64,000 bases of DNA from Alphaproteobacteria bacterium (GCA_035509415.1 DATJLQ010000001.1:101-64100), one strand, 5' to 3'; shown: positions 4,634 to 17,931, numbered from the stretch's first letter. Numbers and translations: made by a program. The notes: generated by a model from the letters alone, not told the origin.

Positions 4634-5752
4634 ATGCCTTCGCTGATCACAGACTCGCCCGCAGCGCCGACGGCGCACGCTCCCGCGACCCTGCGACCGG
4701 ACGCGCGCGCCGGCGATCGGGCGCTCGCCCTGTGGCTCCTCGCCTGCTGCGGCATGATTTTCGTCATGGTGATTCTCGGCGGCGTCACGCGCCTCACGCT
4801 TTCGGGCCTCTCGATCACCCAATGGCAGCCCTTGATGGGCGTGATCCCGCCCCTCGATCACGCGGATTGGATGCGCGAGTTCGCGCATTACAAGGCGACC
4901 ACCCAGTATCAGGTCGTGAACGAGGGCATGAGCCTCGCCGACTTCAAATCGATCTTCTGGTGGGAATACACCCATCGTCTTTGGGGCCGGCTCATCGGCA
5001 TCGCCTTCCTGGTGCCGTTCCTCTATTTCCTCGCGCGCCGGCGCATCGCGCGCCCGCTCGTGCCGCGCCTCGCGATTCTGTTCGCGCTCGGCGCCCTCCA
5101 GGGTGCGGTCGGCTGGTACATGGTGATGAGCGGGCTCGAGGGCCGCACCTCGGTGAGCCAATACCGCCTCGCGGCCCATCTCGGCTTGGCGCTTTTGATC
5201 TACGCCTACATGCTGTGGCTGGCGCTCGACCTGCTTTGGCCGCGCGCGGATTCCTTGCCGCACGACGCCGCGCGCGGCGTCGCGCGATGGGGACGCGCGC
5301 TGGCCGCGTGGATTTACCTCGTGGCCCTCTCGGGCTCGTTCGTCGCGGGGCTCCATGCCGGGCTCATCTACAACACCTTCCCGCTCATGAACGGGCATTT
5401 GATCCCGCCCGGTCTTTATCCGCTCTCGCCCTGGTTCCGAAGCGCCTTCGACGACGTGATGACGGTGCAGTTCGACCACCGCATGCTCGCGATCGCGACC
5501 GTGCTGCTCGTGGTCGCGTTCCGTCTGGCGCTCGCGCGTCTCGAGCTATCGCCGCGCGCCCGGCTCGCGGCCAATCTCATGTGCGGATGGGTGTTCGTGC
5601 AGGTGGCCCTCGGCGTCTCGACTTTGCTGCTCGTGGTGCCGGTGGCGCTCGCCGCCTGCCATCAGGCGGGAGCGCTGGTCCTGTTCAGCCTCGCCATCCT
5701 CGCCGCGCATGAGCTCCCCTCCGCGCGGCGGCGCGGCGGCGCCGAAACCTAA
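4634..5752 (+). CDS. ctaA: Heme A synthase (COX15/CtaA type 2)
   Basis: Internal ATG (MPSLITD...) of the 410-aa ORF. Eight TM segments with conserved His pairs typical of COX15/CtaA. Confidence 0.85.
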   Translation: MPSLITDSPAAPTAHAPATLRPDARAGDRALALWLLACCGMIFVMVILGGVTRLTLSGLSITQWQPLMGVIPPLDHADWMREFAHYKATTQYQVVNEGMSLADFKSIFWWEYTHRLWGRLIGIAFLVPFLYFLARRRIARPLVPRLAILFALGALQGAVGWYMVMSGLEGRTSVSQYRLAAHLGLALLIYAYMLWLALDLLWPRADSLPHDAARGVARWGRALAAWIYLVALSGSFVAGLHAGLIYNTFPLMNGHLIPPGLYPLSPWFRSAFDDVMTVQFDHRMLAIATVLLVVAFRLALARLELSPRARLAANLMCGWVFVQVALGVSTLLLVVPVALAACHQAGALVLFSLAILAAHELPSARRRGGAET

Positions 5753-6294
5753 GCCGCGCAGGCCGGGCACAGGCCGATCGCCTCGACCACCACGTTGCGG
5801 ACCTGGAAGCCGAGCGCCTTCGCATCCGCGCCGATGGCACCCTGGATGCGCCGGTCGTGGAGCTCCGACGCCGCACCGCAACGCGCGCAGATGAGGAACT
5901 GGGTCGCATGGCCGTGCTCGGGGTCGGCGCAACCCAGATAGGCGTTGAGGGACTCGATGCGATGCACGAGCCCCTGCTCGGTCAGGAATTCGAGCGCGCG
6001 ATAGACCGTGGGCGGCGCCGCCGCGCGCCGCTCGCGCCGGAGCGCCGCCAGGATCGCGTAGGCGCCCACGGGATCGTGGCTGCGCCAGACGAGCTCGAGC
6101 ACGCGCCGGCGCAACGGCGTGAGCCGCGCGCCGCGTAGCGCGCACAGGCGCTCGGCCGTGCTCAATGCCGCCGCCTGGCAGCCCGAGTGATTGTGCCGCG
6201 TCTTGCCGAACGGGTCGGCCGTGAGCGCGCCGCGCGGCGTAGCGCCGTCGGCGGATGCCGCTCCTTTGCGCGCGACTCGGGAACTGGGCTTCAT
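5749..6294 (-). CDS. zur: Fur-family transcriptional regulator, Zur-like (zinc uptake regulator)
   Basis: 181 aa with a winged-helix N-terminus and C-terminal CxxC pairs (CARC, CPAC). A canonical Zur box is present elsewhere in the window (12901-12917). 3' end overlaps ctaA convergently by 4 nt. Confidence 0.65.
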   Translation of the reverse strand: MKPSSRVARKGAASADGATPRGALTADPFGKTRHNHSGCQAAALSTAERLCALRGARLTPLRRRVLELVWRSHDPVGAYAILAALRRERRAAAPPTVYRALEFLTEQGLVHRIESLNAYLGCADPEHGHATQFLICARCGAASELHDRRIQGAIGADAKALGFQVRNVVVEAIGLCPACAA

Positions 6295-6571
6295 CGTCCG
6301 AGATTACACGAAGCGCCGCGCGCCCGGAAGCCGCGCGGCGCGCGGGCGGCATTTGACGGCGCCGAGGGGCCGTGCTAGGTCGCACGCCGCCTGGCTCGCT
6401 TCCTCGAACATGCGCGCTGCGGAGCGAATTGGGCCGGGAGGGCATTCGAGTTCGGGTGCGGCGGATTTGCCGAAAAATTGATCGGCGCTCGACGCGCCCG
6501 TAACCACAGATTTGCCACTATTCCTGCTAATCTTCCCCCCTCTAAGTTGTCGTCCCAAAATGGAGAGTAGA

Positions 6572-6913
6572 ATGACGAAGTCGACGATCCGGCTCGCGAC
6601 CCTGGCCGCGGCCCTCATGCTCGGCGCCGCGACCGTGCTGCCGGGTGCGACCCCGGCTTTTGCCCAGACCACCCCGCCCGCCGCGACCGCGCCGGCGAAG
6701 CCCATGCACATGCACAAGCCCATGCACATGGCGCACGGCAGCGCCATGGTCAAGAAGGCGCAGGAGGCTCTCAACAAGGGCGGCGCCAAGCTCGCCGTCG
6801 ACGGCAAGTACGGGCCCAAGACCAAGGCCGCCATCATGGCGTTCCAGAAGGAGCACGGCCTCAAGGCCAACGGCCATCTGGACAAGGCGACCAAGAAGGC
6901 GCTCGGCGTCTAA
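6572..6913 (+). CDS. Exported small protein: signal peptide + Met/His-rich motif + peptidoglycan-binding (PG_binding_1-like) domain
   Basis: GGAGAG Shine-Dalgarno 4 nt before ATG 6572 (alternative ATG at 6560). Signal peptide MTKSTIRLATLAAALMLGAATVLPGATPAFA. Motif PMHMHKPMHMAHGSAM. C-terminus LAVDGKYGPKTKAAIMAFQKEHGLKANGHLDKATKKALG. Confidence 0.7.
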   Translation: MTKSTIRLATLAAALMLGAATVLPGATPAFAQTTPPAATAPAKPMHMHKPMHMAHGSAMVKKAQEALNKGGAKLAVDGKYGPKTKAAIMAFQKEHGLKANGHLDKATKKALGV

Positions 6914-6933
6914 GCGGCGCATTCCCATCGCAA

Positions 6934-6973
6934 CCGGGCCGTTGCGGGCGACCGCGGCGGCCCGTTTCTTTTT
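6934..6973 (+). terminator. Rho-independent terminator after the 6572..6913 gene
   Basis: CGGGCCG...CGGCCCG stem followed by TTTCTTTTT. Confidence 0.55.
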
Positions 6974-7059
6974 CCGCCTGCGCCCAAGTCTCTCGCGCCA
7001 CCTTTTTTCGCCACGTCCCGGCTAGGCGCATCATATCCCAAGGGCTAGATTGGGCGCCG

Positions 7060-7707
7060 ATGGACGGGGCCCGCGAGACGCGCGACGAGACGGTTGGCCG
7101 CCGCGCGCGCTTTCGCGCCGCGGGGCTCGGCGCGCTCGCCTGCGCCGCGGCGTTGCTCGCGAGCCTGCCGGCCGCGCGCGCCCATCCCCATGTCTGGATC
7201 GACAATTCGGTCGTGGTGCGGTTCGAGCACGCGAAGATCGCGGCCCTCGACGTGAGCTGGGTGTTCGACGAGTTCTACAGCGCCGACACGATCCAGGATT
7301 TCGACGAAGGCCACAAAGGGACCTTGGACCAAGCCGAGCTCGGCAAGCTCGCCGCGACCGGGGTCAAGTCGCTCAAGGGCTACAACTACTTCTCCTATCT
7401 CTATCTCGACGGCAAGAAGACGCCGGTCGCCTCGGTTACCCATTTCGCCGTCGGCCTCGAGAAGAATATCCTGGTCTACCGCTTCACCATCCCGGTGAGC
7501 CCGCCCATCGACCCCAAGGCGCGCAAATTCGCCTTCGCCATCTACGACGACAGCTATTTCGTCGACATCGAGCCGGCGAAGACGAATCCGGTGACCTTCG
7601 CGGGCGACGTGCCCAAGGGCTGCGCTGCCCGGGCGGCCGAGGACAAGAACGATCCCTATTATTTCGGCCAGGTCTATCCGCTCGTGGTCTCGGTGACCTG
7701 CCCATGA
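7060..7707 (+). CDS. DUF1007-family periplasmic protein (partner of NicO-type transporter)
   Basis: 215 aa with signal peptide and HPHVWID motif. ATGA overlap with the downstream NicO gene. Confidence 0.75.
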   Translation: MDGARETRDETVGRRARFRAAGLGALACAAALLASLPAARAHPHVWIDNSVVVRFEHAKIAALDVSWVFDEFYSADTIQDFDEGHKGTLDQAELGKLAATGVKSLKGYNYFSYLYLDGKKTPVASVTHFAVGLEKNILVYRFTIPVSPPIDPKARKFAFAIYDDSYFVDIEPAKTNPVTFAGDVPKGCAARAAEDKNDPYYFGQVYPLVVSVTCP

Positions 7708-8642
7708 GCCGCGTCGCGTCCCTCGTCACCGCGTTGCTCGCGGGGCTCCTCGCACTCGCCATCTGGGCGACCCTCGAGCGCACGCCGTGGCTCGAGGTCG
7801 GCTGGATGCACGAGCTGATGCGCGCCGTGTTCCTCGCCCAGCGCGAGCTCTACCGCGACATGGCGCAGGCGGTCGGCGATTACCGCGATCGTGCCGCGCG
7901 CGCGCCGCTTCTGTGGCTCATGGGTCTCTCGTTCGTTTACGGCGTGTTCCACGCGGTCGGCCCCGGCCACGGCAAGCTCGTGATCTCGTCCTACCTGGTC
8001 GCGCGCGGGAGCCGGATGCGGCGCGGGCTTTGGATCACCCTCGCCTCGGCGCTCGCCCAGGCCGCGAGTGCGGTGGCGCTGGTGGGCACCCTCGCGATCG
8101 GCCTCCACGTCACCGGGCGGCGCATCGAGGCCCAGACCCAGACTCTCGAGATCGCGAGCTACGCGCTCATCGTCCTGGTCGGATTCTGGATGCTCTACGG
8201 CGCGTTGCGCCGCGCGCAGCCCCATGCCCACGGACCCGCGCACAGCTTCGACCCGCTCGGCGTCGGCGACGAGACGCATTACCCGCCCGGCGCGGGCTTC
8301 CTCGCCTTCGCGCGGCGCCATCATGTCGCGGCCGTGGTGCTCGCGGTCGGCATCCGGCCCTGCAGCGGCGCGATCCTGGTGCTGCTCTTCACCCTCGGCC
8401 AGGGGATTTTCGCCGTCGGCATCGCGGCCGCCGTGGTGATGGCGCTCGGCACCGCGCTCACGGTCGCGAGCTTGGCGCTCTTCACCGTCGTCTCGCGTGC
8501 GGCCGCGGTGCGCCTCGCGCGCCGGAAGTCGCGTTGGGAGGGACTGCTCGAGCGCGCGCTCGAGCTCCTGGGCTCGCTCGCCGTGCTCGCGGGCGGCTCG
8601 CTCTTCCTGCTCGTGGCATTGCAACAGCCGGTCCCGCTCTGA
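7704..8642 (+). CDS. NicO/RcnA-family metal (Ni/Co/Zn-type) transporter membrane protein
   Basis: 312 aa, multi-TM, with the RcnA/NicO signature FHAVGPGHGK and a His-rich loop HAHGPAHSFD. Lies in frame within the fused 7050..8642 ORF. Confidence 0.8.
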   Translation: MSRVASLVTALLAGLLALAIWATLERTPWLEVGWMHELMRAVFLAQRELYRDMAQAVGDYRDRAARAPLLWLMGLSFVYGVFHAVGPGHGKLVISSYLVARGSRMRRGLWITLASALAQAASAVALVGTLAIGLHVTGRRIEAQTQTLEIASYALIVLVGFWMLYGALRRAQPHAHGPAHSFDPLGVGDETHYPPGAGFLAFARRHHVAAVVLAVGIRPCSGAILVLLFTLGQGIFAVGIAAAVVMALGTALTVASLALFTVVSRAAAVRLARRKSRWEGLLERALELLGSLAVLAGGSLFLLVALQQPVPL

Positions 8643-8667
8643 GGCGTCCCCGAATGCCGGGGTCGCC

Positions 8668-9375
8668 TTATCGCACCGAGATCGGGATGCGCAGATCGAG
8701 GGTGCTTGCGACCGGCCTGCCGCTCCGAATCGCGGGAAAGAAGCGCCAGCGCCGAAGCGCATCCAGCAATAAGCGATTGACGCGCGGCTCGGCCGTCGGC
8801 TCGATCAGCTCGACGGTCGCGCTGCCGTCGGGCTCGATGTGGAAGCGCGCGACCGCGATCCATTCGACGTTGCGGCGGCGGAGGTCGTCGGGCAGCTCGG
8901 GCATCGGCTTGAAGATCGCGCGCGGCGCGACACTGTCGCCGAACGATGGGTGCGCAGGGACCGGCGTCGAAGGCGCGCGGGGTGCCGGCTCCGTATTCGC
9001 GGGCGAAGCCGGAGCCGGAGATGGGCGAGGCGGCGTGGGTCTGGGCGGCGGCGGCGCCGGTTTGGGCACGGGCATGGGTGCCAGCAGGGGGGCTCGCTCC
9101 GGCTGGGGCGCCTCCTGTGGCGGCGGCGGTTCCAGCACGGGCGGTGGCGGCGTCGCCGCTCGAGGTGCGGGGGTCGGCGTCGGCGCCTCGACCGGGTGCA
9201 GTTCGACCAATTGCACCACGAGCGGCGCCGGGCGGGGTGTCGGAGGAGCCAGGACCAGGACGCTCAGAAATGCGCCGACCGCGGCCGACGTCGCGAGCAA
9301 GGCCGCCGGCAGGAGCCAATAGAGCCGCGGCCATGGATCGTCCCGAAACGTGGACCGCAGCGGGGCCTGGCGCAC
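8668..9375 (-). CDS. tonB: Energy transducer TonB
   Basis: N-terminal TM anchor, long Pro-rich spacer (PTPRPAPL...PPPPRPTPPRPSPAP) and C-terminal TonB domain. Confidence 0.85.
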   Translation of the reverse strand: MRQAPLRSTFRDDPWPRLYWLLPAALLATSAAVGAFLSVLVLAPPTPRPAPLVVQLVELHPVEAPTPTPAPRAATPPPPVLEPPPPQEAPQPERAPLLAPMPVPKPAPPPPRPTPPRPSPAPASPANTEPAPRAPSTPVPAHPSFGDSVAPRAIFKPMPELPDDLRRRNVEWIAVARFHIEPDGSATVELIEPTAEPRVNRLLLDALRRWRFFPAIRSGRPVASTLDLRIPISVR

Positions 9376-9387
9376 GGCGCCGCAAGC

Positions 9388-9789
9388 CTATTCCGGCTTG
9401 ATCGCGAACAGGAAATGCTCGACGCCCGCCGCGCGCGCCTTGAGCATCGCCTCGACCACGATGCCGTTCGGCGCGGCGCTGTCGGCATTGACCACGAGGC
9501 TCGTGGCACCGCCGGGTGCGAGGCGCATAAGCGTCGGTCCGATCGTCTCGAGCGTCACCGGCGTGCGGTCGAGTGCCAAATCGCCCGCGCGCGTGACCGT
9601 GAGCGTCACCGACGCTTTGGGCGGCGCCGCCAGCGCCTGTCCGCGCGGGAGGTCGACCGGAAGGGAGTGGAGGTTCTCGAGCGAGAGCGAGGCGAGCATG
9701 AAGGTCGCGAGCAAAAAGAACATCACATCGATCATCGGGATGATCTCGATGCGTCCCTTGCGCCGGGCGCGCGCCCTACGCAGCTTCAT
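9388..9789 (-). CDS. exbD: ExbD/TolR biopolymer transport protein
   Basis: 133 aa, IPMIDVMFFLL TM segment plus periplasmic domain. Confidence 0.9.
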   Translation of the reverse strand: MKLRRARARRKGRIEIIPMIDVMFFLLATFMLASLSLENLHSLPVDLPRGQALAAPPKASVTLTVTRAGDLALDRTPVTLETIGPTLMRLAPGGATSLVVNADSAAPNGIVVEAMLKARAAGVEHFLFAIKPE

Positions 9790-10414
9790 CGCCCGCTCCT
9801 TCCCGGTCCAGGCGCACGCGATCGATCATGCGGGTGCCCAAGCGCTCCATCTCGTCCATGATCCGGGCCTGGCGTTGGGAGAAGTAATTGAAGGCGAACA
9901 GCGCAATAAGCGCCACGAACAGGCCGAGCGCGGTCGCGATCAACGCCTCGGCGACGCCCCCGGTGACGCCCGCGGGATCGACCAGGCCCTGGCTGCCGAA
10001 CAGGCGGAATGCGCGGATCATGCCCGTGATGGTGCCGAGGAGCCCGAGCAAGGGTGCGGCGGTGACGATGGTCTCGAGCATCCAGAGCCAGCGCCCGAGC
10101 GATTTCTCGATCAGGCTCGCCTCGTCGCCCGCGCGCGATTCGAGCCACCAGGGCGGCTGGGCGCGGCCTGCGGCGAGCGTCGACAGGAAGGCGCCGAAAT
10201 AGTTGCGCGATCCGAGCGAGGCGAGCCCGCTCTCGAGCTCGGCCCACGAATACCGGTACGTCTCGATCAGCCCGCGCAGGGGTTCGGGCAGCCGCGTGCG
10301 CGCCCAGAAGACGAATCCCTTCTCAAGCACGATGATCGCGGCCAGGAGGGCGAGCGCCAGCAAGGGGTAGACCATCGCACCCCCGGCTTGAAGCGTCGCG
10401 AGAACGTTCTGCAT
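9776..10414 (-). CDS. exbB: ExbB (MotA/TolQ/ExbB proton channel)
   Basis: 212 aa with 3 TM segments and the conserved C-terminal MotA/TolQ region. Overlaps exbD by 14 nt. Confidence 0.9.
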   Translation of the reverse strand: MQNVLATLQAGGAMVYPLLALALLAAIIVLEKGFVFWARTRLPEPLRGLIETYRYSWAELESGLASLGSRNYFGAFLSTLAAGRAQPPWWLESRAGDEASLIEKSLGRWLWMLETIVTAAPLLGLLGTITGMIRAFRLFGSQGLVDPAGVTGGVAEALIATALGLFVALIALFAFNYFSQRQARIMDEMERLGTRMIDRVRLDREGAGDEAA

Positions 10415-10470
10415 GCAAGCTCCGTTAGTCGCCGATCCCGATCCCGACCCCGATTCGTGTCGCCGCTCGG

Positions 10471-12867
10471 CTAGAATTCCTTGGTGATGCCGGCGAAGAA
10501 GGCGCGCCGAGGTCCGTACTGGGGCGCGAACACGCCGACGCCGGTGCCGCTACGGATTTGATAGGTCCGGTCGAACAGGTTGATGACGGTGAATTTGATC
10601 TCGAACGTGCCGAAGCTCTCGGTTGCGATCTTGTCCGAGGCGCCGACGTTCATCTGCCAATAGGGCGTCACGGTCGCGCCATTGGGCGTGTCGCCGTCCT
10701 CGCGCAGGCCGCTGCCGTAGAGCAAATCCGAGCTGAACCGGACCCCGTGCCATTTGTAGGCGGCGCCGCTCGAGGCGGTGATGAACTGGTCGTGGTCGAG
10801 CGGGATGAAGTGGGTCTGGATGTAGGCGAGATCGGACGCGGAGAAATTATACTGTCCCGAGACGATGTCCTTGCCCACCGCGTGGGAGAACGCGACGTTG
10901 CCGTAGGCCGAGAAATCGCCCTGGGTGTAGTTGGTCGTGAGCTCGACGCCGTATTGCCGCCCTTCGCGATAGTTGAACGGCGTGAGGATGACCGGCGCGC
11001 CGAACTGGCCCTCGTCGATCAAGTCGTGGGATTTCTTGAAGTAGGAATCGATGCCGGCGTCTAGGCCCGGCAGGATCTTCTGGGTGACGCCGCCATCGAA
11101 GTAGTGGGAGCGCTCGGCCTTGATCGACGAATCCTCCGTCACCTCGGGTGCTGCCGAAGTGTTGGCGAAGCTCGCCACGCTGGCGGCCGAGAACAGCTCG
11201 AAGGGCGGGGGCGTGAAGTAGCGCGCGTAGCCGACATGAAGCGTGGTCGCATCGATCGGCCGCCACACCACGTTGATGCGCGGGCTCAACTGATCGGCAT
11301 GGGTCACCGTGTCCACGCGGTCGGCGCGCCCGCCGTAATTGATCGTGAGGCGCGGGAACAGCCGCCATTCGTCCTGGAGATAGATGCTCTCGGTCCAGCC
11401 GGTCTTGCCTTCCTCGTCGAAGATGCTCTCGGGCGCGGTGCCGATCTGATTGCCGTTCGCGTCGGTCGGCACCACCGACGAGATCGTCTTCGAGATGCTG
11501 CGCTCGCCGGTCAGGAGGAAGCCGGAGCGCAAGGTATGGTCGTCGGCGATCCGGTAGCTGCCGTCGGTCTGGATGCCGCTCGCCTGGTCCTGGCGGTAGG
11601 CTTGCTGGGCGATGCCGTTATAGAGGAGATCGCCGACCTCGTCGGGAACGAAGTTCAGGCTGCTGTAACGGGTGAAGAAGGCGGTCTGGACGTCGACTTT
11701 GTCCCACGATTTCTGCAGCGCTGCGATGCCGAATTGCGTGATCTCGCGCTGGTTCTCGTCGAGCTGCGAGGAATCGAAGGTGGTCTGGCCGTTGACGTTC
11801 CATCCGAGGCTCGGCATCTGGCCCGGCGTGTTGGGAATCTCGAACTGGCTGCGCTCGGTGCCGAGCATCGCGCTGATGCGGCTGGTCGGATCGAGGATCG
11901 CCGAGAAATAGGCGAAGCCGTGGCCCTGCTCCGATTGGTCGTGAAGCGGGTTCGCGCCCGGCGTCGGCGATTCGATGCCGAGATCGTTCTGGAGATAGTC
12001 GCCCGTGACGTAGTAGTCGACCCGGCCGTAGGAGCCGCCATATTCGGCGCTCGGATGCAACGTCGAGCGGCTGCCGCCTTCCATGCTTACGCTGCCGCCC
12101 GGCTCGAACGCGCCGCTCTTGGTCCGGATGTCGATGATGCCGGCCGTGTCGAGGCCGTATTCGGCCGGCAAGGCGCCGGTGACGAGCTGGACCTGGTCGG
12201 CGAAGCGCGCGCTCAGCGCCTGGCCGAACACGCTCATCCCCTCGGGCAGGATGAAGCCGTTGATGCGGTACTGGAGCGCATTGTGCTCGCCCCGGATATG
12301 GAGCTGGCCGAAGGAATCCATGGCGACGCCGGGCGCTTGCAGCACGATCTGGTCCAAGGGATTGTCGGCGCCGAGCGGCTCCGCCGAAATCGCCTCCCGC
12401 GAGATCGTGTAGGTCGAAGCGCCGATCTGCGGCTCGATCCCCGCGCGCGCCTCGTCGAGGCGCTTTTCGGTGACGGCCAGATCGAGCGCTTGCTGCGCCG
12501 ACAGCACGAGCTCCACGCTTGCGACGCCGGAAGCGCTCACGGTCACGATCGTCGTCGCGGGCTCGAAGCCGGCCTTGCTGCCGACGACCGAGAGCACGCC
12601 GGGGGCGATACCGGAGACGCGGGCGGAGCCCTCCGGATCGGTCGCGGCGCGGCCCACGACCGCGCCGTCCGCCGATTGCACCTCGGTCTCGACGCCCGCA
12701 AGCGGCCGCCCGAGCGAATCCCGAGCCTCGATCTGGATCGCGCCGGTGGACCCCGGGCCGGCCGAGGCCCCGGGCGCCGCGCCGACAAGCCCCGCCGCCA
12801 AAAACACACACGCCGCGATCGTCCGCACCATCGGCATCGCGGCCACGCTCCCGCTCGTCGCTTTCAT
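10471..12867 (-). CDS. TonB-dependent outer-membrane receptor with N-terminal carboxypeptidase-regulatory-like extension (Zur-regulated, ZnuD-like candidate)
   Basis: 798 aa with signal peptide, an extra N-terminal beta-sandwich-like domain before the plug, a 22-strand barrel and C-terminal ...AGITKEF. GGGGGAG Shine-Dalgarno. Zur box 34 bp upstream. Confidence 0.9.
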   Translation of the reverse strand: MKATSGSVAAMPMVRTIAACVFLAAGLVGAAPGASAGPGSTGAIQIEARDSLGRPLAGVETEVQSADGAVVGRAATDPEGSARVSGIAPGVLSVVGSKAGFEPATTIVTVSASGVASVELVLSAQQALDLAVTEKRLDEARAGIEPQIGASTYTISREAISAEPLGADNPLDQIVLQAPGVAMDSFGQLHIRGEHNALQYRINGFILPEGMSVFGQALSARFADQVQLVTGALPAEYGLDTAGIIDIRTKSGAFEPGGSVSMEGGSRSTLHPSAEYGGSYGRVDYYVTGDYLQNDLGIESPTPGANPLHDQSEQGHGFAYFSAILDPTSRISAMLGTERSQFEIPNTPGQMPSLGWNVNGQTTFDSSQLDENQREITQFGIAALQKSWDKVDVQTAFFTRYSSLNFVPDEVGDLLYNGIAQQAYRQDQASGIQTDGSYRIADDHTLRSGFLLTGERSISKTISSVVPTDANGNQIGTAPESIFDEEGKTGWTESIYLQDEWRLFPRLTINYGGRADRVDTVTHADQLSPRINVVWRPIDATTLHVGYARYFTPPPFELFSAASVASFANTSAAPEVTEDSSIKAERSHYFDGGVTQKILPGLDAGIDSYFKKSHDLIDEGQFGAPVILTPFNYREGRQYGVELTTNYTQGDFSAYGNVAFSHAVGKDIVSGQYNFSASDLAYIQTHFIPLDHDQFITASSGAAYKWHGVRFSSDLLYGSGLREDGDTPNGATVTPYWQMNVGASDKIATESFGTFEIKFTVINLFDRTYQIRSGTGVGVFAPQYGPRRAFFAGITKEF

Positions 12868-12900
12868 GATCTCCCCCGGAAGGAATGCCCAACGACCGGG

Positions 12901-12917
12901 ATGTTATAGTATAACAT
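12901..12917. promoter_or_regulatory. Zur box (perfect 8-1-8 palindrome ATGTTATAgTATAACAT)
   Basis: Exact match to the widely conserved Zur operator ATGTTATAnTATAACAT. Lies between the divergent TBDR operon and the znuA-like operon. Confidence 0.8.
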
Positions 12918-12936
12918 TTTGCATCGGCAAGAGCTT

Positions 12937-12953
12937 TGTTATATTATTACACA
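12937..12953. promoter_or_regulatory. Possible second, degenerate Zur box
   Basis: TTGTTATATTATTACAC matches 14/17 of the Zur-box consensus. About 70 bp upstream of the znuA-like ATG. Confidence 0.4.
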
Positions 12954-13023
12954 TCAAGTCGCGCGCGCCGCTCGGAGGCGAGCGCACGGCACCAAACTTA
13001 TCGGCGTCCACAGGAGGGGCACG

Positions 13024-13935
13024 ATGCGACATTTCATCTTCGCAGCACTGGCCGGCGCGGTTATGATCGTCTCGACCGCGGTCGTCACGACGGCCGCGGC
13101 GCAGCCGGTCAACGCCGTCGGCGTGGAAAACGAATATGCCGACGTGATCGAGCAGATCGGCGGCAGTTATGTTAAGGTGAGCGCGATCGAAACCGATCCC
13201 AACACCGATCCGCACACCTTCGAGGCAAGCCCCAAGGTCGCGACCCAGATTTCGTCGGCTCAATTGATCGTCGAGAACGGCCTCGGCTACGATTCCTGGG
13301 CGGACAAGATCATCGCCGCGGCGCCCAACGCCAACCGCAAGGTGATCGTCGTCCAGCAATTGCTCGGTCTCCCCGACAGCACGCCGAACCCCCATTTGTG
13401 GTACGATCCGAAAGCGATGCCGGCCGTGGCGCAGGCAGTGGCGCAGGCCCTCGCAGCCCAACGGCCGGCGCAAGCGGCCTACTTCAAATCCAACGCGGAC
13501 AAATTCGTGGCATCGCTCAAGCCTTGGATGGCGGCCATCGCTTCGTTCAAGGCGGCGTACGGGCATACGCCGGTCGCGGTCACCGAGCCGGTTGCCGACT
13601 ACATGCTCGAAGCCATCGGCTGCGACATCCTGACGCCCTTCACGCTCCAGGCGGCGATCATGAACGGAACCGACCCCTCGCCCCAGGACGTGACCACGCA
13701 GAACGCCCTTTTCAACGAACACAAGGTCAAGGTCTTCGTCTATAATCAGCAGGTCACGGACACGCTGACCCAGGCGTTCCTCAACCTCGCCAAGAAGAAC
13801 GGCATACCCGTCGTCGGCGTCTACGAGACGATGCCGACCCCCGGCTACAACTACCAATCCTGGATGCTTGCGGAGGTCGTCGCCCTGCGCAAGGCGGTGA
13901 CCCTCAAAGCATCCACCGAGACGCTGATCAAGTGA
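13024..13935 (+). CDS. Metal ABC transporter substrate-binding protein (ZnuA/TroA/AztC cluster-9 family)
   Basis: Internal ATG (MRHFIFAALAGAVMIVS...) preceded by AGGAGG. Signal peptide and TroA-like fold motifs. No long His-rich loop. The six-frame ORF begins at a TTG at 12919 that overlaps the Zur box. Confidence 0.85.
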   Translation: MRHFIFAALAGAVMIVSTAVVTTAAAQPVNAVGVENEYADVIEQIGGSYVKVSAIETDPNTDPHTFEASPKVATQISSAQLIVENGLGYDSWADKIIAAAPNANRKVIVVQQLLGLPDSTPNPHLWYDPKAMPAVAQAVAQALAAQRPAQAAYFKSNADKFVASLKPWMAAIASFKAAYGHTPVAVTEPVADYMLEAIGCDILTPFTLQAAIMNGTDPSPQDVTTQNALFNEHKVKVFVYNQQVTDTLTQAFLNLAKKNGIPVVGVYETMPTPGYNYQSWMLAEVVALRKAVTLKASTETLIK

Positions 13936-14771
13936 AACCGGCAATCCTACATGATGGAGGCGAGATCCTCGCCGTCGACCGGGTGGGGGTCTCGCTCTCG
14001 GGGCGACAAATCCTCCAGGATGTGAGCTTCAAGTTAAGGCCCGGCGAGTTCTGCGGTCTGATCGGCATGAATGGCTCGGGCAAGACCACGCTCCTGCGCG
14101 CCATTCTCGGCTTTCTGACTCTGAGCGCGGGCAAAGTCAGGATCGACGGTCGCGGCGACGGCCCGGTCTCGGTCGGCTACGTTCCCCAGAAGATCTCGTT
14201 CGATTCCCACGTACCGCTGCGCGCGCGCGATCTGGTCGCGCTCGGCCTCGACGGTCATCGGCTCGGCATCCCGCTCCCCTCGAAGGCGCGCCGACGGCTG
14301 GTCGATGAGGCATTGCAGGAGGTGAACGCGGAGAGCTTCGCCGACCGTCGAGTCGGCAATCTCTCCGGCGGCGAGCAGCAACGGGTGCTGATCGCGCATG
14401 CCTTGATTCGCCGTCCGCGCCTGCTGTTGCTGGACGAGCCGCTCGCCAATCTCGACATTCGGGGTGTCGCCGAAATCGTCGCGGTCCTGCGCCGCCTATC
14501 CGTGGAGCACAAGATCGCGGTGCTGCTTTCCGCCCACGACATGAATCCGCTGCTCCCGGTCATGGATCGCATCGTGTATTTGGCCAGCGGCCGTGCGGCG
14601 AGCGGCCGGACGGACGAGGTCGTGCGAACCGAGGTGCTCAGCAAGCTCTACGGCTACCATATCGACGTCGTCCGCGTGCATGGCCGGGTCCTGGTGATCG
14701 CCGCCGGGGGCGCCGACGACATCCTCACGGCGGTCGCGGAAAATCCCGCGCACGTCGCCCAGATTCCGTGA
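13932..14771 (+). CDS. Metal ABC transporter ATP-binding protein (ZnuC-like)
   Basis: Walker A GMNGSGKTT, ABC signature LSGGEQQR, Walker B LLLLDEP. GTGA overlap with the SBP gene. Confidence 0.9.
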   Translation: MKPAILHDGGEILAVDRVGVSLSGRQILQDVSFKLRPGEFCGLIGMNGSGKTTLLRAILGFLTLSAGKVRIDGRGDGPVSVGYVPQKISFDSHVPLRARDLVALGLDGHRLGIPLPSKARRRLVDEALQEVNAESFADRRVGNLSGGEQQRVLIAHALIRRPRLLLLDEPLANLDIRGVAEIVAVLRRLSVEHKIAVLLSAHDMNPLLPVMDRIVYLASGRAASGRTDEVVRTEVLSKLYGYHIDVVRVHGRVLVIAAGGADDILTAVAENPAHVAQIP

Positions 14772-14777
14772 TCGGCC

Positions 14778-15689
14778 ATGAAATTCCTGCTCACGATGAT
14801 CTTCGCCCCAGGCTTCCTCACGAGCGAGCCCGTGCAAACCGCGATGATCGTCGGAGGCGGCGCCGCGCTCGTGTCGGGCGTGGTCGGCGTATTCGCGGTC
14901 ATGAGGGGTCAGTCCTTCGCCGGCCACGCGCTCGCCGACGTGACCAGCGCCGGCGGCGCGGCCTCGTTCCTCCTTGGCATCAATCCGCTGCTCGGATTCT
15001 TGTGCATGGCCGTGCTTGCCGCCGGAGGAATGGAGGCGGCCGGGGTTCGTCGCATCCGAGAGCGCGACCTCGTGACCGGCATCGTCCTGGGCGCAGGGCT
15101 CGGCGTTACCGCGCTGTTCTTGTACTTGGACGTCACCTTGGGGAGCACCACCGGAGCGGCAAACATGGTGATGTTCGGCTCGATGTTCGCCATCCCCGCC
15201 GAGACAATCCCGCTCGCCCTCGGAGTCGGCCTATGCGCGCTGGCGTCGGTCGCCGTCCTCTACCGCCCGTTGCTTCTGAGCTCGCTCAATCCGGAACTCG
15301 CCGAGGCCCGGGGGCTGCCGCTTCGGCTGATCGGATTCCTCCAGTTGCTGGCATTGGCCCTGGCCGTGTCGCTCTCCGCGATGACGATCGGCGCCATTCT
15401 GTCCACAGCGTTGTTGATCGGGCCGGCTGCGACGGCCTTGCGCGTGGCGCGGCGGCCTGGCTGGGCAATCGTGATCGCCGCCCTGGTCGGCCTCGGCGCC
15501 ACTTGGGGCGGGATTCTTCTCGCCTATGACAGTTTCTATTGGACGCCCGGGCACGGCTGGCCCGTGAGCTTCTTCGTCGTCACGCTCGTTTTCCTGGCCT
15601 ACCTGCTCGCGAGCCTCTCCGGGAGAAGGGGCGAACGGACGCGGGACGCGCCGAGCCACTCGGCACCCGGCGCGATGGGCAAGGCCTGA
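14778..15689 (+). CDS. Metal ABC transporter permease (ZnuB/TroC-like)
   Basis: 303 aa, 8-9 TM segments, ABC-3 family. Confidence 0.9.
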   Translation: MKFLLTMIFAPGFLTSEPVQTAMIVGGGAALVSGVVGVFAVMRGQSFAGHALADVTSAGGAASFLLGINPLLGFLCMAVLAAGGMEAAGVRRIRERDLVTGIVLGAGLGVTALFLYLDVTLGSTTGAANMVMFGSMFAIPAETIPLALGVGLCALASVAVLYRPLLLSSLNPELAEARGLPLRLIGFLQLLALALAVSLSAMTIGAILSTALLIGPAATALRVARRPGWAIVIAALVGLGATWGGILLAYDSFYWTPGHGWPVSFFVVTLVFLAYLLASLSGRRGERTRDAPSHSAPGAMGKA

Positions 15690-15691
15690 CC

Positions 15692-16513
15692 ATGTTCTCG
15701 GGCTTCATGATCAACACTTGGGTCGTGGCGAGCATCGTTGCGGCCGTTGCCGGCTGCGTCGGCTTCTTTGTGGTCATCCGGGGTTCCGCGTTCGCCGCTC
15801 ATGCATTGCCGCTCGGCGCCTTCCCCGGCGCAGCGGCGGCGAGCTTCATCGGCGTCAATCAATTCTTCGGGCTGATCGTGTTCGCCGGTCTCGGGATCGT
15901 CGGAATTCTCCAGCTCGGCCGCCGGGGACGGCCCGATGTCGCGACGGCACTTTCCCTGGTGACGCTCCTCGGGCTGGGAACGCTGTTCCTGAGCATGACC
16001 CGGGAATATTCTCAGGAAGTCTACGCCCTTCTCTTCGGGCAGGTCCTCGGCATCGGCGCCAAGGACTTCGCGCCGGTCGCGGCGGTGGGCGCGATCTCGG
16101 TCGCGGCCATCGTGACGCTGTTCCGGCCCCTCCTGCTCAACTCCCTATCGCCCGAGCTGGGGAATGCCAGGGGAGTGTCGGACCGCCGCTCGGAGCTCTG
16201 CTTTTTGATTATTCTGGCGCTCGCCACGACCGTGACGCTCCCGGTGGTGGGCGCACTCCTCGTTTTCAGCCTGATGGTCGGCCCGGCTTCCGCCGCGCGT
16301 TTCTTTACCGATCGGCCGCTCCACGCAATGCTCATCTCCATGGGCGTGGCGCTGGTCACTATGTGGTCTGCGATCGCCCTCTCTTACGTCTCGAACTGGC
16401 CCATAGGCTTTTTCGTCGGAAGCATGAGTGCCGTTTGCTACGGCGTCGGGCGAACCTGGGCCTGGGTCAGATTGAGCAAGCGGCAAGCGACGTTAGCGGC
16501 CGATCTGTCGTAA
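15692..16513 (+). CDS. Metal ABC transporter permease, second subunit (TroD-like)
   Basis: Internal ATG (MFSGFMINTWVVASIVAAV...) 3 nt after the previous stop. ABC-3 family, paralogous to the preceding permease. Confidence 0.85.
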   Translation: MFSGFMINTWVVASIVAAVAGCVGFFVVIRGSAFAAHALPLGAFPGAAAASFIGVNQFFGLIVFAGLGIVGILQLGRRGRPDVATALSLVTLLGLGTLFLSMTREYSQEVYALLFGQVLGIGAKDFAPVAAVGAISVAAIVTLFRPLLLNSLSPELGNARGVSDRRSELCFLIILALATTVTLPVVGALLVFSLMVGPASAARFFTDRPLHAMLISMGVALVTMWSAIALSYVSNWPIGFFVGSMSAVCYGVGRTWAWVRLSKRQATLAADLS

Positions 16514-16569
16514 ATCGAGGAAAGCGCCCGTCTAAAGACGCATGCCCGCGTCCACGCCGACGCTCGCCC

Positions 16570-17931
16570 TCACACCACCTTGGTCGCCGGCTTGCCTTGG
16601 AGATTTTCCTCCTCGGCGTAGGTGCGGCTCATGATCACGATCGCGACGCAGGCGAGCGCCAGCGGCAGCCCGCCCAGGAGGAAGATCGAGGCGGTCGGCC
16701 ATTTGAGCGAGATCAGGAACGCGGCCACGAGCGGCCCGACGATCGCACCCACGCGCCCGATGCCGAGGCACCAGCCGACCCCGGTCGAGCGCATCGCGGT
16801 CGGATAGAAGATGGCCGAGAGCGCGTTGGCGCAGTTCTGGCCGCCGATCACGCAGAAGCCGGCGCCGAAGGTGAGCAGCATCAGGACCGGCACGTCGGTG
16901 CCCGCGTGGCCGAGCACGATCACGAACACGCAGCCGAGCCCGAACATGAGCGGCAGCACGCGGAACGCGCCGTAGCGGTCCATCGGCATGCCGATAAGGA
17001 AGCTCGCGACGATGCCGCCGATCTGGAACAGCGTGCCGATGATGACCGCGGTCTGGACCGGCACGCCGGCGCCCGTGGTGATCGCGGGAATCCAGTTCTG
17101 CAGGAAGAAGAGATCGAGCAAATTCATGAAGAAGATGATCCACAGCAGGACCGTGCCGGCGCCGCGCGCGTTGCGGAACAGGTGTGCCACGGGCACGCCC
17201 GTGATGTTCGTCTCGCCGATGGTGAAGCGCGCGTCGGCGGCGAGCGCCAGGCGGGGATCGATGCGGCGCACGAGGGAGGCGATGCGCTCGCGCGCGGCGT
17301 TGGTCACCATGAGGAAGCGGATCGATTCCGGCAGTGCCGCGAATTGGAGCGGCAGCGTGATGAGCGGCAGGATTCCCCCCACGTACCAGACCACGCGCCA
17401 GCCATGCGTCGGGATCGCGTGGGCCGCGATGGCGCCCGCGGCGGCGGCGCCGAACGAGAAGCCGGTGAACATGATCATCACGAGGGTCGCGCGCCGGCGC
17501 TCGGGGCAATATTCGGCGGTGAGCGCGATGCAGTTGGGCATCGCCCCGCCGAGCCCGAAGCCGGTCAGGAGCCGGTAGATCAGGAGCTGGGTCAAATTGT
17601 CGGATGTCGCCGTGAGCAGCGTGAAGACGCCGAAGATCGCGGTGCAGATCAGGATCACCTTGCGCCGGCCGATCTTGTCGGCGACCACGCCGAACAGAAG
17701 CGCCCCCACGAGGAGACCCACCAGGCTCGCGGTGAAGACCGGCCCGAGGGTGAACTTGTCGAGGTGCCATTCCTTCGCGATCGACGGGGCGACGAAGGCG
17801 ATCGACTGGGCGTCGTACCCGTCGAGGAGCACGGTGAAGCCGCAGATGAGCACCACCCAAAGCTGGAAGCGCCCGAGCTTGCGCTCGTTGATGAAAGACG
17901 GAATGTCGATGACCGCGCCGTCGGCCGCCAT
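16570..17931 (-). CDS. MFS transporter, aromatic acid:H+ symporter (AAHS) family
   Basis: 454 aa from internal ATG (MAADGAVIDIPSF...), 12 TM segments, MFS motifs GRRKV and DRYG. Resembles PcaK/MhpT-type hydroxybenzoate transporters. Confidence 0.8.
   Translation of the reverse strand: MAADGAVIDIPSFINERKLGRFQLWVVLICGFTVLLDGYDAQSIAFVAPSIAKEWHLDKFTLGPVFTASLVGLLVGALLFGVVADKIGRRKVILICTAIFGVFTLLTATSDNLTQLLIYRLLTGFGLGGAMPNCIALTAEYCPERRRATLVMIMFTGFSFGAAAAGAIAAHAIPTHGWRVVWYVGGILPLITLPLQFAALPESIRFLMVTNAARERIASLVRRIDPRLALAADARFTIGETNITGVPVAHLFRNARGAGTVLLWIIFFMNLLDLFFLQNWIPAITTGAGVPVQTAVIIGTLFQIGGIVASFLIGMPMDRYGAFRVLPLMFGLGCVFVIVLGHAGTDVPVLMLLTFGAGFCVIGGQNCANALSAIFYPTAMRSTGVGWCLGIGRVGAIVGPLVAAFLISLKWPTASIFLLGGLPLALACVAIVIMSRTYAEEENLQGKPATKVV

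Follow-up and report, generated by a model that had tools for sequence, protein, structure and literature searches.

A candidate Zur-controlled zinc island in which a TonB-dependent receptor with an N-terminal extension is encoded together with a divergent Ton system

Introduction

Only for a few receptors is it known how zinc crosses the outer membrane. A locus in a 64,000-nt stretch of DNA (the window; Alphaproteobacteria bacterium, GCA_035509415.1 DATJLQ010000001.1:101-64100, positions counted from its first letter) raises the question whether such a receptor can have a Ton motor of its own, and what an additional domain in front of the receptor might have to do with that motor. On the minus strand, between 8668 and 12867, a TonB-dependent transporter (TBDT), exbB, exbD and tonB lie as four open reading frames (ORFs) in an operon-like array, and the TBDT carries an N-terminal extension (NTE) ahead of its plug domain. 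Gene order, domains, folds and operator sequence, with their conservation among related loci, are described below. They make it fairly probable that the locus is a Zur-repressed zinc-acquisition island, with a receptor that has a private motor and an NTE that acts as a docking or selectivity surface. The locus defines a large family spread over Alpha-, Beta- and Gammaproteobacteria and Myxococcota, with thousands of relatives in the databases and apparently clear Zur control in many lineages.

Results and Discussion

A receptor with an N-terminal extension heads an operon-like array

The first-pass annotation of this sequence had called the four genes and proposed that they are co-transcribed. 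All four were present as described, on the minus strand:

10471..12867, minus strand: TBDT, 798 aa (ORF, Pfam, AlphaFold2 (AF2) model and Foldseek; alternative start Met11 at 12837)
9776..10414, minus strand: exbB, 212 aa (MotA_ExbB, 95.8 bits, above threshold)
9388..9789, minus strand: exbD, 133 aa (ExbD, 68.7 bits, above threshold)
8668..9375, minus strand: tonB of a distinct subfamily, 235 aa, GTG start (N-terminal anchor, Pro-rich spacer and C-terminal domain)

The gap between TBDT and exbB is 56 nt, exbB and exbD overlap by 14 nt, and exbD and tonB are separated by 12 nt; a promoter and terminator scan detected no promoter-like or terminator-like site between the four genes on their own strand. 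Co-transcription is supported by this operon-like arrangement, which is kept in 25 other loci. The TBDT has two candidate starts: ATG at 12867, with GGGGGAG 3 nt ahead of it, for a protein of 798 aa, and Met11 (12837), used in the database call, for one of 788 aa; the signal peptide is intact with both. The source is probably an uncultured alphaproteobacterium; the closest named relatives of the window proteins were found in metagenome-assembled genomes of Stellaceae and other Alphaproteobacteria.

The receptor was divided into the following parts:

12760..12867, minus strand: signal peptide, aa 1-36 (cleavage after ASA by eye; predicted local distance difference test score, pLDDT, below 50 for aa 1-39)
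12499..12741, minus strand: NTE, a CarboxypepD_reg/transthyretin-like seven-strand beta-sandwich, aa 43-123 (Pfam, AF2, Foldseek)
12466..12489, minus strand: putative TonB box ALDLAVTE, aa 127-134 (alignments; about 4 residues after the last NTE strand)
12118..12450, minus strand: plug domain, aa ~140-250 (Pfam Plug 20.9 bits, below threshold, and fold)
10474..12099, minus strand: 22-strand beta-barrel, aa 257-798 (Pfam, alignment, AF2 model)

Residues 49-122 matched CarboxypepD_reg (PF13620) with 35.8 bits (threshold 32.3; E 1e-8), and the TonB_dep_Rec barrel scored 93.6 bits in Pfam. An AF2 model of the NTE (aa 35-136, 57 homologues) reached a pLDDT of 89 and has seven strands. Compared with the PDB in Foldseek, it matched transthyretin-like and CnaB domains, including carboxypeptidase D 5aq0 (template modelling score 0.85), 3mn8 and 1qmu, and also the NTE of the SusC dextran transporter BT3090 (9hfj, E 2e-5). 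The earlier estimate of some 110 residues from signal peptide to plug therefore stands, with the signal at ~1-36, the NTE at 43-123, the TonB box at ~127-134 and the plug from ~140 on, and its comparison of this region to a CarboxypepD_reg beta-sandwich of the SusC kind was borne out by both the Pfam search and the structure prediction.

The full-length AF2 model (pLDDT 81) showed 22 long barrel strands and a plug, and its Foldseek matches were PqqU, PfeA, BtuB and YncD at E 1e-27 to 1e-29 with 13-16% identity. Because the model has barrel and plug and matches solved TBDTs, the receptor is predicted to be a bona fide TBDT, in a family without a solved or characterised member. The plug motifs are invariant across the alignment of the receptor family, and the full-length fold matches take in the plug region. 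Two pairs of invariant residues, H309-D310 and D691-H692, map to loops predicted at 294-312 and 671-695 (alignment and AF2 model); by standard TBDT topology these loops would lie outside the cell. ALDLAVTE aligned with the canonical ETVTVTA-type boxes of orthologues that have no NTE; the consensus was LD(V/L)xVxA in NTE-type receptors versus (E/D)x(V/I)(V/T)V(T/I)A in most NTE-less ones.

Candidate Zur operators lie between the receptor and znuA

The region between the divergent TBDT and znuA-like genes measures 156 bp and is AT-rich in a genome of ~68% GC. It contains two boxes:

12901..12917: Zur box 1, perfect 17-nt palindrome ATGTTATAGTATAACAT, 33 nt before the start codon of the TBDT
12936..12952: Zur box 2, TTGTTATATTATTACAC, with 3 mismatches; it overlaps the -10 of a promoter-like site for znuA

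The match is more than chance: with the window shuffled 100 times, no match appeared. Box 1 includes the -10 of a leftward TBDT promoter recognised by eye (TTGCCG-16-TATAAC), a site that the promoter scan did not call; the scan did report the znuA promoter-like site, TTTGCA-16-TATATT, at 12918-12945. The palindrome fits the validated Zur operators of Caulobacter, best that of znuK, GATGTTATATCATAACAAT, from which it differs at three positions. Those operators, validated by electrophoretic mobility shift assays and reporters, also overlap the -10 (PMC4176598). The predicted Zur regulon of the first-pass annotation is thus supported by an operator in the promoter region that resembles validated ones and recurs upstream of orthologues.

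The receptor family has two forms

A genome scan with the single protein returned no relatives; an alignment-based scan of species-representative genomes yielded 80 related loci from Alpha-, Beta- and Gammaproteobacteria, from Myxococcota and from a small number of further groups. In the databases, some 7,300 proteins matched the receptor at E<=1e-10. Close homologues come in two forms, of ~780-800 aa with PF13620 and of ~700 aa without it, with identities of 51-65% in plug and barrel among the aligned homologues, whichever form they have. A profile of the family searched against PDB sequences (E<=1e-3) did not match ZnuD, and gave only short, weak stretches of CirA and PfeA. In one locus (L083, 4572-6931) the receptor is split into two called genes of 221 aa (CarboxypepD_reg) and 565 aa (barrel), a split that is due either to a frameshift or pseudogene formation or to misassembly.

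In many loci of both forms from Alpha- and Betaproteobacteria, a palindrome resembling the Zur box directly precedes the receptor. A box is present in 14 of the 26 loci that carry the receptor with its Ton genes (the cassette) and in many NTE-less loci. In the 1.27 Mb of locus sequence there were 20 sites with at most 2 mismatches, 18 of them upstream of a receptor start; the two exceptions lay inside an over-extended match (L060) and ~0.9 kb upstream, beside a zur-like gene (L059). Either zur or znuA/C/B is adjacent in L001, L005, L020, L021, L026, L069 and L089, and L001, L021, L081 and L083 are flanked by the same zinc genes as the window (zur, znuA/C/B, DUF1007-NicO). Since Zur boxes, or zur or znuA as a neighbour, are found with NTE-less orthologues as well, the whole receptor family appears to be linked to zinc, and the NTE is not needed for this link. 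No Zur-box motif was detected in the gammaproteobacterial and Myxococcota members.

The TonB of the cassette belongs to a narrow subfamily

The first-pass annotation had called the TonB Pro-rich, and both a hydrophobic anchor and a Pro-rich region are visible in its sequence. The protein belongs to a narrow subfamily with 293 relatives at E<=1e-5, most of them with PF03544, which is characterised by an N-terminal motif, RDDPWxRLPWLLPAAL, and by a C-terminal domain of the form KPMPEIPExLRRR...WRFFPA...IRIPISVR. The TonB_C domain scored 23.8 bits in the cassette TonB versus 57-62 bits in the canonical TonBs encoded beside related receptors. Three independently picked members of the subfamily were all encoded in NTE-TBDT-exbB-exbD-tonB arrays, and a fourth was followed directly by DUF1007-NicO-znuACB. 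The 64-kb window contains no other Ton genes. From the distribution of the subfamily, the motor of the cassette is probably private to the receptor.

In the anchor (aa 12-45 of the window TonB) the RDDPWxRLPWLLPAAL motif is conserved and the membrane segment contains no His. The TonB of Escherichia coli has a functionally important residue, His20, in its anchor segment. Public gene calls shorten tonB to its last 78 codons, leaving out the anchor and the Pro-rich region, in the window as well as in L085 (12953-13189) and L086 (13934-14170), and automated annotation therefore under-reports the subfamily. A spurious opposite-strand ORF was called in L085.

The N-terminal extension and the Ton genes occur together

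The association between NTE and Ton genes was scored on genomic loci with at least 700 nt of downstream sequence. Receptors with an NTE were followed by exbB(-exbD-tonB) at a distance of 25-98 nt in 18 of 19 cases, and the ExbB of the other cassettes is 44-74% identical to the window protein; among NTE-less receptors, 52 of 54 had no Ton genes downstream. The same picture was obtained from metagenome loci, in which the cassette accompanied all three NTE forms (P0002, P0006, P0059) and neither of the two NTE-less forms (P0029, P0073). The four-gene cassette was observed in Alpha-, Beta- and Gammaproteobacteria and Myxococcota, which suggests that it is a self-contained module.

Two NTE-less receptors, in L005 and L006, are followed by a canonical Ton system of another subfamily, with an ExbB only 32-38% identical to that of the window and TonB_C scores of 57-62 bits. 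The regions in question are 3529-5446 in L005, where a znuA fragment follows exbB-exbD-tonB, and 10057-11940 in L006. A dedicated Ton system beside a zinc receptor therefore seems to have arisen more than once. As their Ton genes belong to this different subfamily, L005 and L006 were not accepted as NTE-less receptors with the same cassette. L003 and L060, initially taken for NTE forms lacking the cassette because tblastn had over-extended the match, were counted as NTE-less: their ORFs, of 699 and 710 aa, begin only downstream of the Zur box.

Genes flanking the array

The array is surrounded by the following genes:

5749..6294, minus strand: Fur-family regulator, best match Zur (Zur equivalog 127.6 bits, next family 40.7)
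7060..7707, plus strand: DUF1007 protein, first of a gene pair convergent with tonB
7704..8642, plus strand: NicO-family membrane transporter (Pfam), second of the DUF1007-NicO pair
13024..13935, plus strand: znuA-like substrate-binding protein, divergent from the TBDT
13932..14771, plus strand: znuC-like ATPase
14778..15689, plus strand: ABC-3 permease 1
15692..16513, plus strand: ABC-3 permease 2

The Znu-type ATP-binding cassette (ABC) importer has two separate ABC-3 permease genes instead of one (14778-16513, plus strand), implying a heterodimer. The DUF1007-NicO pair sits between the Fur-family (Zur-like) gene and tonB, and it recurs beside the cassette in L081 (1229-2833; also in L082) and L083 (2800-4331). 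In Stellaceae it comes directly after tonB and before znuACB, and in L083 it is divergent from the receptor. The pair is likely a part of the zinc island, as an inner-membrane metal importer. Between zur and DUF1007 (6575-6913, plus strand) lies a gene for a small secreted protein (~112 aa) that carries PG_binding_1 at its C-terminus, contains a stretch rich in His and Met, KPMHMHKPMHMAHGSAM, and may bind metal in the periplasm. A search for Zur boxes upstream of this small gene and of DUF1007 gave none. An Rfam scan of 5000-17000 gave no match, and thus no riboswitch on DUF1007-NicO.

Proposed function and its alternatives

Zinc as the substrate, repression by Zur and a role of the NTE in docking are proposed from the gene context, folds and conservation described above. 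When zinc is sufficient, Zur-Zn would bind both boxes of the 156-bp divergent region and block both promoters, because each box overlaps a -10. Under zinc starvation, TBDT-exbB-exbD-tonB would be derepressed leftward and znuA-znuC-znuB-znuB' rightward. The TBDT would then capture zinc at the cell surface, most likely as the ion or as loosely bound zinc, at the invariant His/Asp residues of the loops. Energy would be supplied by the co-expressed ExbB-ExbD-TonB, the divergent C-terminal domain of TonB pairing with the TonB box. The NTE would provide an extra docking or selectivity surface, so that the private TonB could serve this receptor with no competition for the housekeeping Ton system. Transfer of zinc across the inner membrane would fall to ZnuA and the ABC permeases, with DUF1007-NicO as a possible second route.

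A more specific claim within this scheme is that the NTE pairs the receptor with a private, divergent TonB, and that NTE and cassette TonB were gained or lost together within an orthologous family of zinc TBDTs. This claim is tentative and rather doubtful, and a number of results weigh against it or against the scheme as a whole. Several profile scores are low: the plug (20.9 bits) and the TonB_C domain of tonB (23.8 bits) fall just short of their Pfam thresholds of 23.9 and 24.6, respectively, and the Zur equivalog score of the Fur-family regulator is under its cut-off of 167. No Zur-box motif was present in 12 of the 26 cassette loci. L001, a Stellaceae locus, has an NTE receptor (5524-7860) with a canonical TonB box, EITITA, and no cassette. 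In neighbour-joining trees of plug and barrel (60 bootstraps, Fitch parsimony), the cassette changed twice and the NTE three times in 55 of the 60 bootstraps, and once and twice, respectively, in the remaining 5, so that the association comes down to about two co-transitions and one counter-example. Distances of the TonB C-terminal domain correlate with those of the barrel (r = 0.84) equally well as with those of the NTE. Finally, Oar, a TBDT of Myxococcus xanthus that has an NTE of the same Pfam family, still secretes the protease PopC when the NTE is removed, and the N-terminus of Oar binds the C-terminal domains of several TonBs, among them that of E. coli (PMC6434023).

A Fisher test on the association had given p = 4e-12 (before L003 and L060 were reclassified). 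The value ignores phylogeny and was rejected as independent evidence, because parsimony shows only about two events. The receptor gene of L001 diverges from znuACB and has Zur-like boxes; by its barrel the receptor belongs with the NTE-less forms, and its NTE is the most divergent of all, with 25% identity to the window NTE.

A quite possible alternative, if short of a probable one, is that the NTE has no TonB-specific role and acts as a spacer, helps in biogenesis or serves as a tether in the periplasm. The co-occurrence would then be a matter of shared descent: the ancestral cassette had all four genes, and both features disappeared in one or two lineages. About two transitions explain the pattern, and L001 retains its NTE without the cassette; yet the receptor gene has the NTE at one end and the Ton genes at the other, out of reach of any single deletion, and still both changed on the same branches. 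Of the five parts compared, the NTE evolves fastest (mean p-distance 0.62, versus 0.38-0.43 in the remaining four); His and Cys are missing from it, and its conserved positions seem to serve the fold. Among those parts, however, the TonB C-terminal domain is the one whose distances agree most closely with those of the NTE, at r = 0.85, or a partial r of 0.64 with the barrel taken into account. This mirror-tree result, in which all cassette parts co-vary, is only suggestive. While the NTE-less Oar is functional and Oar binds TonB promiscuously, deletion of the NTE kills function in Bt1763, a SusC of Bacteroides (PMC7782687). In the window receptor the TonB box is moreover only about 4 residues away from the NTE body, and a bound TonB C-terminal domain must therefore sit against the NTE. 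That the complete cassette is spread over several phyla as one unit counts in favour of coupling. Taken as a whole, the coupling between NTE and TonB is suggestive, not proven.

That the substrate is something other than free zinc, either a zinc-metallophore complex made elsewhere or by neighbours, or copper, nickel or cobalt, is unlikely. A DUF2946-type gene with His/Cys motifs directly precedes the receptor in L087 (5428-5865), L088 (5500-5919) and L090 (5578-5949). Receptors with this upstream gene include NTE and NTE-less forms and lack the Zur-box motif. Part of the cassettes have no such motif, and some relatives have DUF2946 upstream instead, so that lineages may differ in regulation or in the metal. 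In the window a NicO-family transporter lies next to the array, and the literature has not settled which form of zinc crosses Zur-regulated TBDTs (PMC10563805). For free zinc speak the perfect Zur box common to the receptor and a ZnuA-type ABC importer, the adjacent zur, the invariant His/Asp pairs in the predicted loops, and the flanks of the operon, in which no genes for metallophore biosynthesis or export were found. The first-pass annotation had also considered a zincophore; nothing points to one, and no biosynthesis genes are nearby.

It is highly improbable that exbB-exbD-tonB are the general Ton system of the organism, or one of several, and stand beside the receptor by chance: the window holds no other Ton genes, but every examined member of this narrow TonB subfamily lies in an NTE-TBDT cassette, the Zur box ahead of the operon would shut a general system down in zinc-replete cells, and the C-terminal domain diverges clearly from its canonical counterparts.

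In the zinc-island reading, one subset of the receptor family moves as a four-gene module of receptor and own motor. The NTE is essential in a SusC of Bacteroides, and the matched orthologues with and without NTE described here differ precisely in whether they own a distinct TonB. If the NTE indeed pairs the receptor with a private TonB, the family would be a natural experiment, in culturable Proteobacteria, on the role of SusC/Oar-type NTEs. Cultured carriers of the cassette include Paraburkholderia caffeinilytica, P. fungorum, P. tuberum and Caballeronia udeis; the hypothesis is testable in genetically tractable strains of these two genera.

Comparison with known systems

Literature searches returned no paper on this combination or on the receptor family, none joining a carboxypeptidase-regulatory TonB-dependent receptor with zinc and Zur, and none joining DUF1007 with zinc and Zur; a paper on zinc starvation in Burkholderia cenocepacia does not mention exbB or exbD. 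Every single element has precedent, namely Zur-regulated TBDTs, a Zur-regulated Ton system, an NTE-bearing TBDT with its own Ton cluster, and the SusC NTE. The earlier judgement that a complete, dedicated TonB machine in a Zur regulon is unusual was overstated, as it was preceded by the Zur-regulated tonB-exbB-exbD of Acinetobacter baumannii (PMC3516566) and the Ton cluster of Oar (PMC6434023).

ZnuD of Neisseria meningitidis and other Zur-regulated zinc receptors are likewise outer-membrane TBDTs that are repressed by Zur and act upstream of ZnuABC; ZnuD differs in having neither an NTE nor linked Ton genes. It was absent from the top 50 structural matches of the full-length receptor model, the nearest of which were generic TBDTs. 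In Caulobacter crescentus, the alphaproteobacterial TBDTs ZnuK, ZnuL and ZnuM are under Zur repression by way of a similar kind of operator, again over the -10, and ZnuK and ZnuL are required for growth in zinc starvation; neither an NTE nor a linked Ton system is described for them (PMC4176598). NTE-less members of the present family with similar boxes occur in Caulobacteraceae (L011, L039, L069). On the question whether ZnuK/L/M (CC1517, CC0214 and CC0663) might be orthologues, a search from the Caulobacter sp. member L011 gave no C. vibrioides protein among its best 120 matches.

The TonB1-ExbB1-ExbD1 system of A. baumannii is also a complete Ton system with a Zur box; it is induced by zinc chelation and was proposed to be dedicated to zinc import (PMC3516566). 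Unlike the array in the window, tonB1-exbB1-exbD1 form an operon of their own without a co-transcribed receptor; ZnuD1/2 are encoded elsewhere, and no NTE is described for them. M. xanthus Oar shares with the window receptor a PF13620 NTE before the TonB box and the clustering with its own ExbB/ExbD/TonB genes, but it functions in protease secretion and development and is not metal-regulated (PMC6434023). The window receptor is not of the Oar subclass, since only 32 of its residues (aa 487-518) match the Oar-type barrel profile PF25183 (838 positions).

The same NTE fold, directly before the TonB box, is found in the SusC-like transporters of Bacteroidota (Bt1763 NTE, 6YTC; BT3090 NTE, 9hfj). 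These systems differ in their SusD partner, their glycan substrate and the use of PF13715 versus PF13620 here, where the host is proteobacterial and the substrate presumably a metal. The receptor in the window has no SusD-like neighbour, with exbB downstream and znuA upstream of it. A PF13620 NTE is one of the two dominant TBDT architectures. For Bt1763, Gray et al. described the same geometry of NTE and TonB box as in the present receptor, and they proposed that the NTE of SusC gives specificity among TonB paralogues (PMC7782687).

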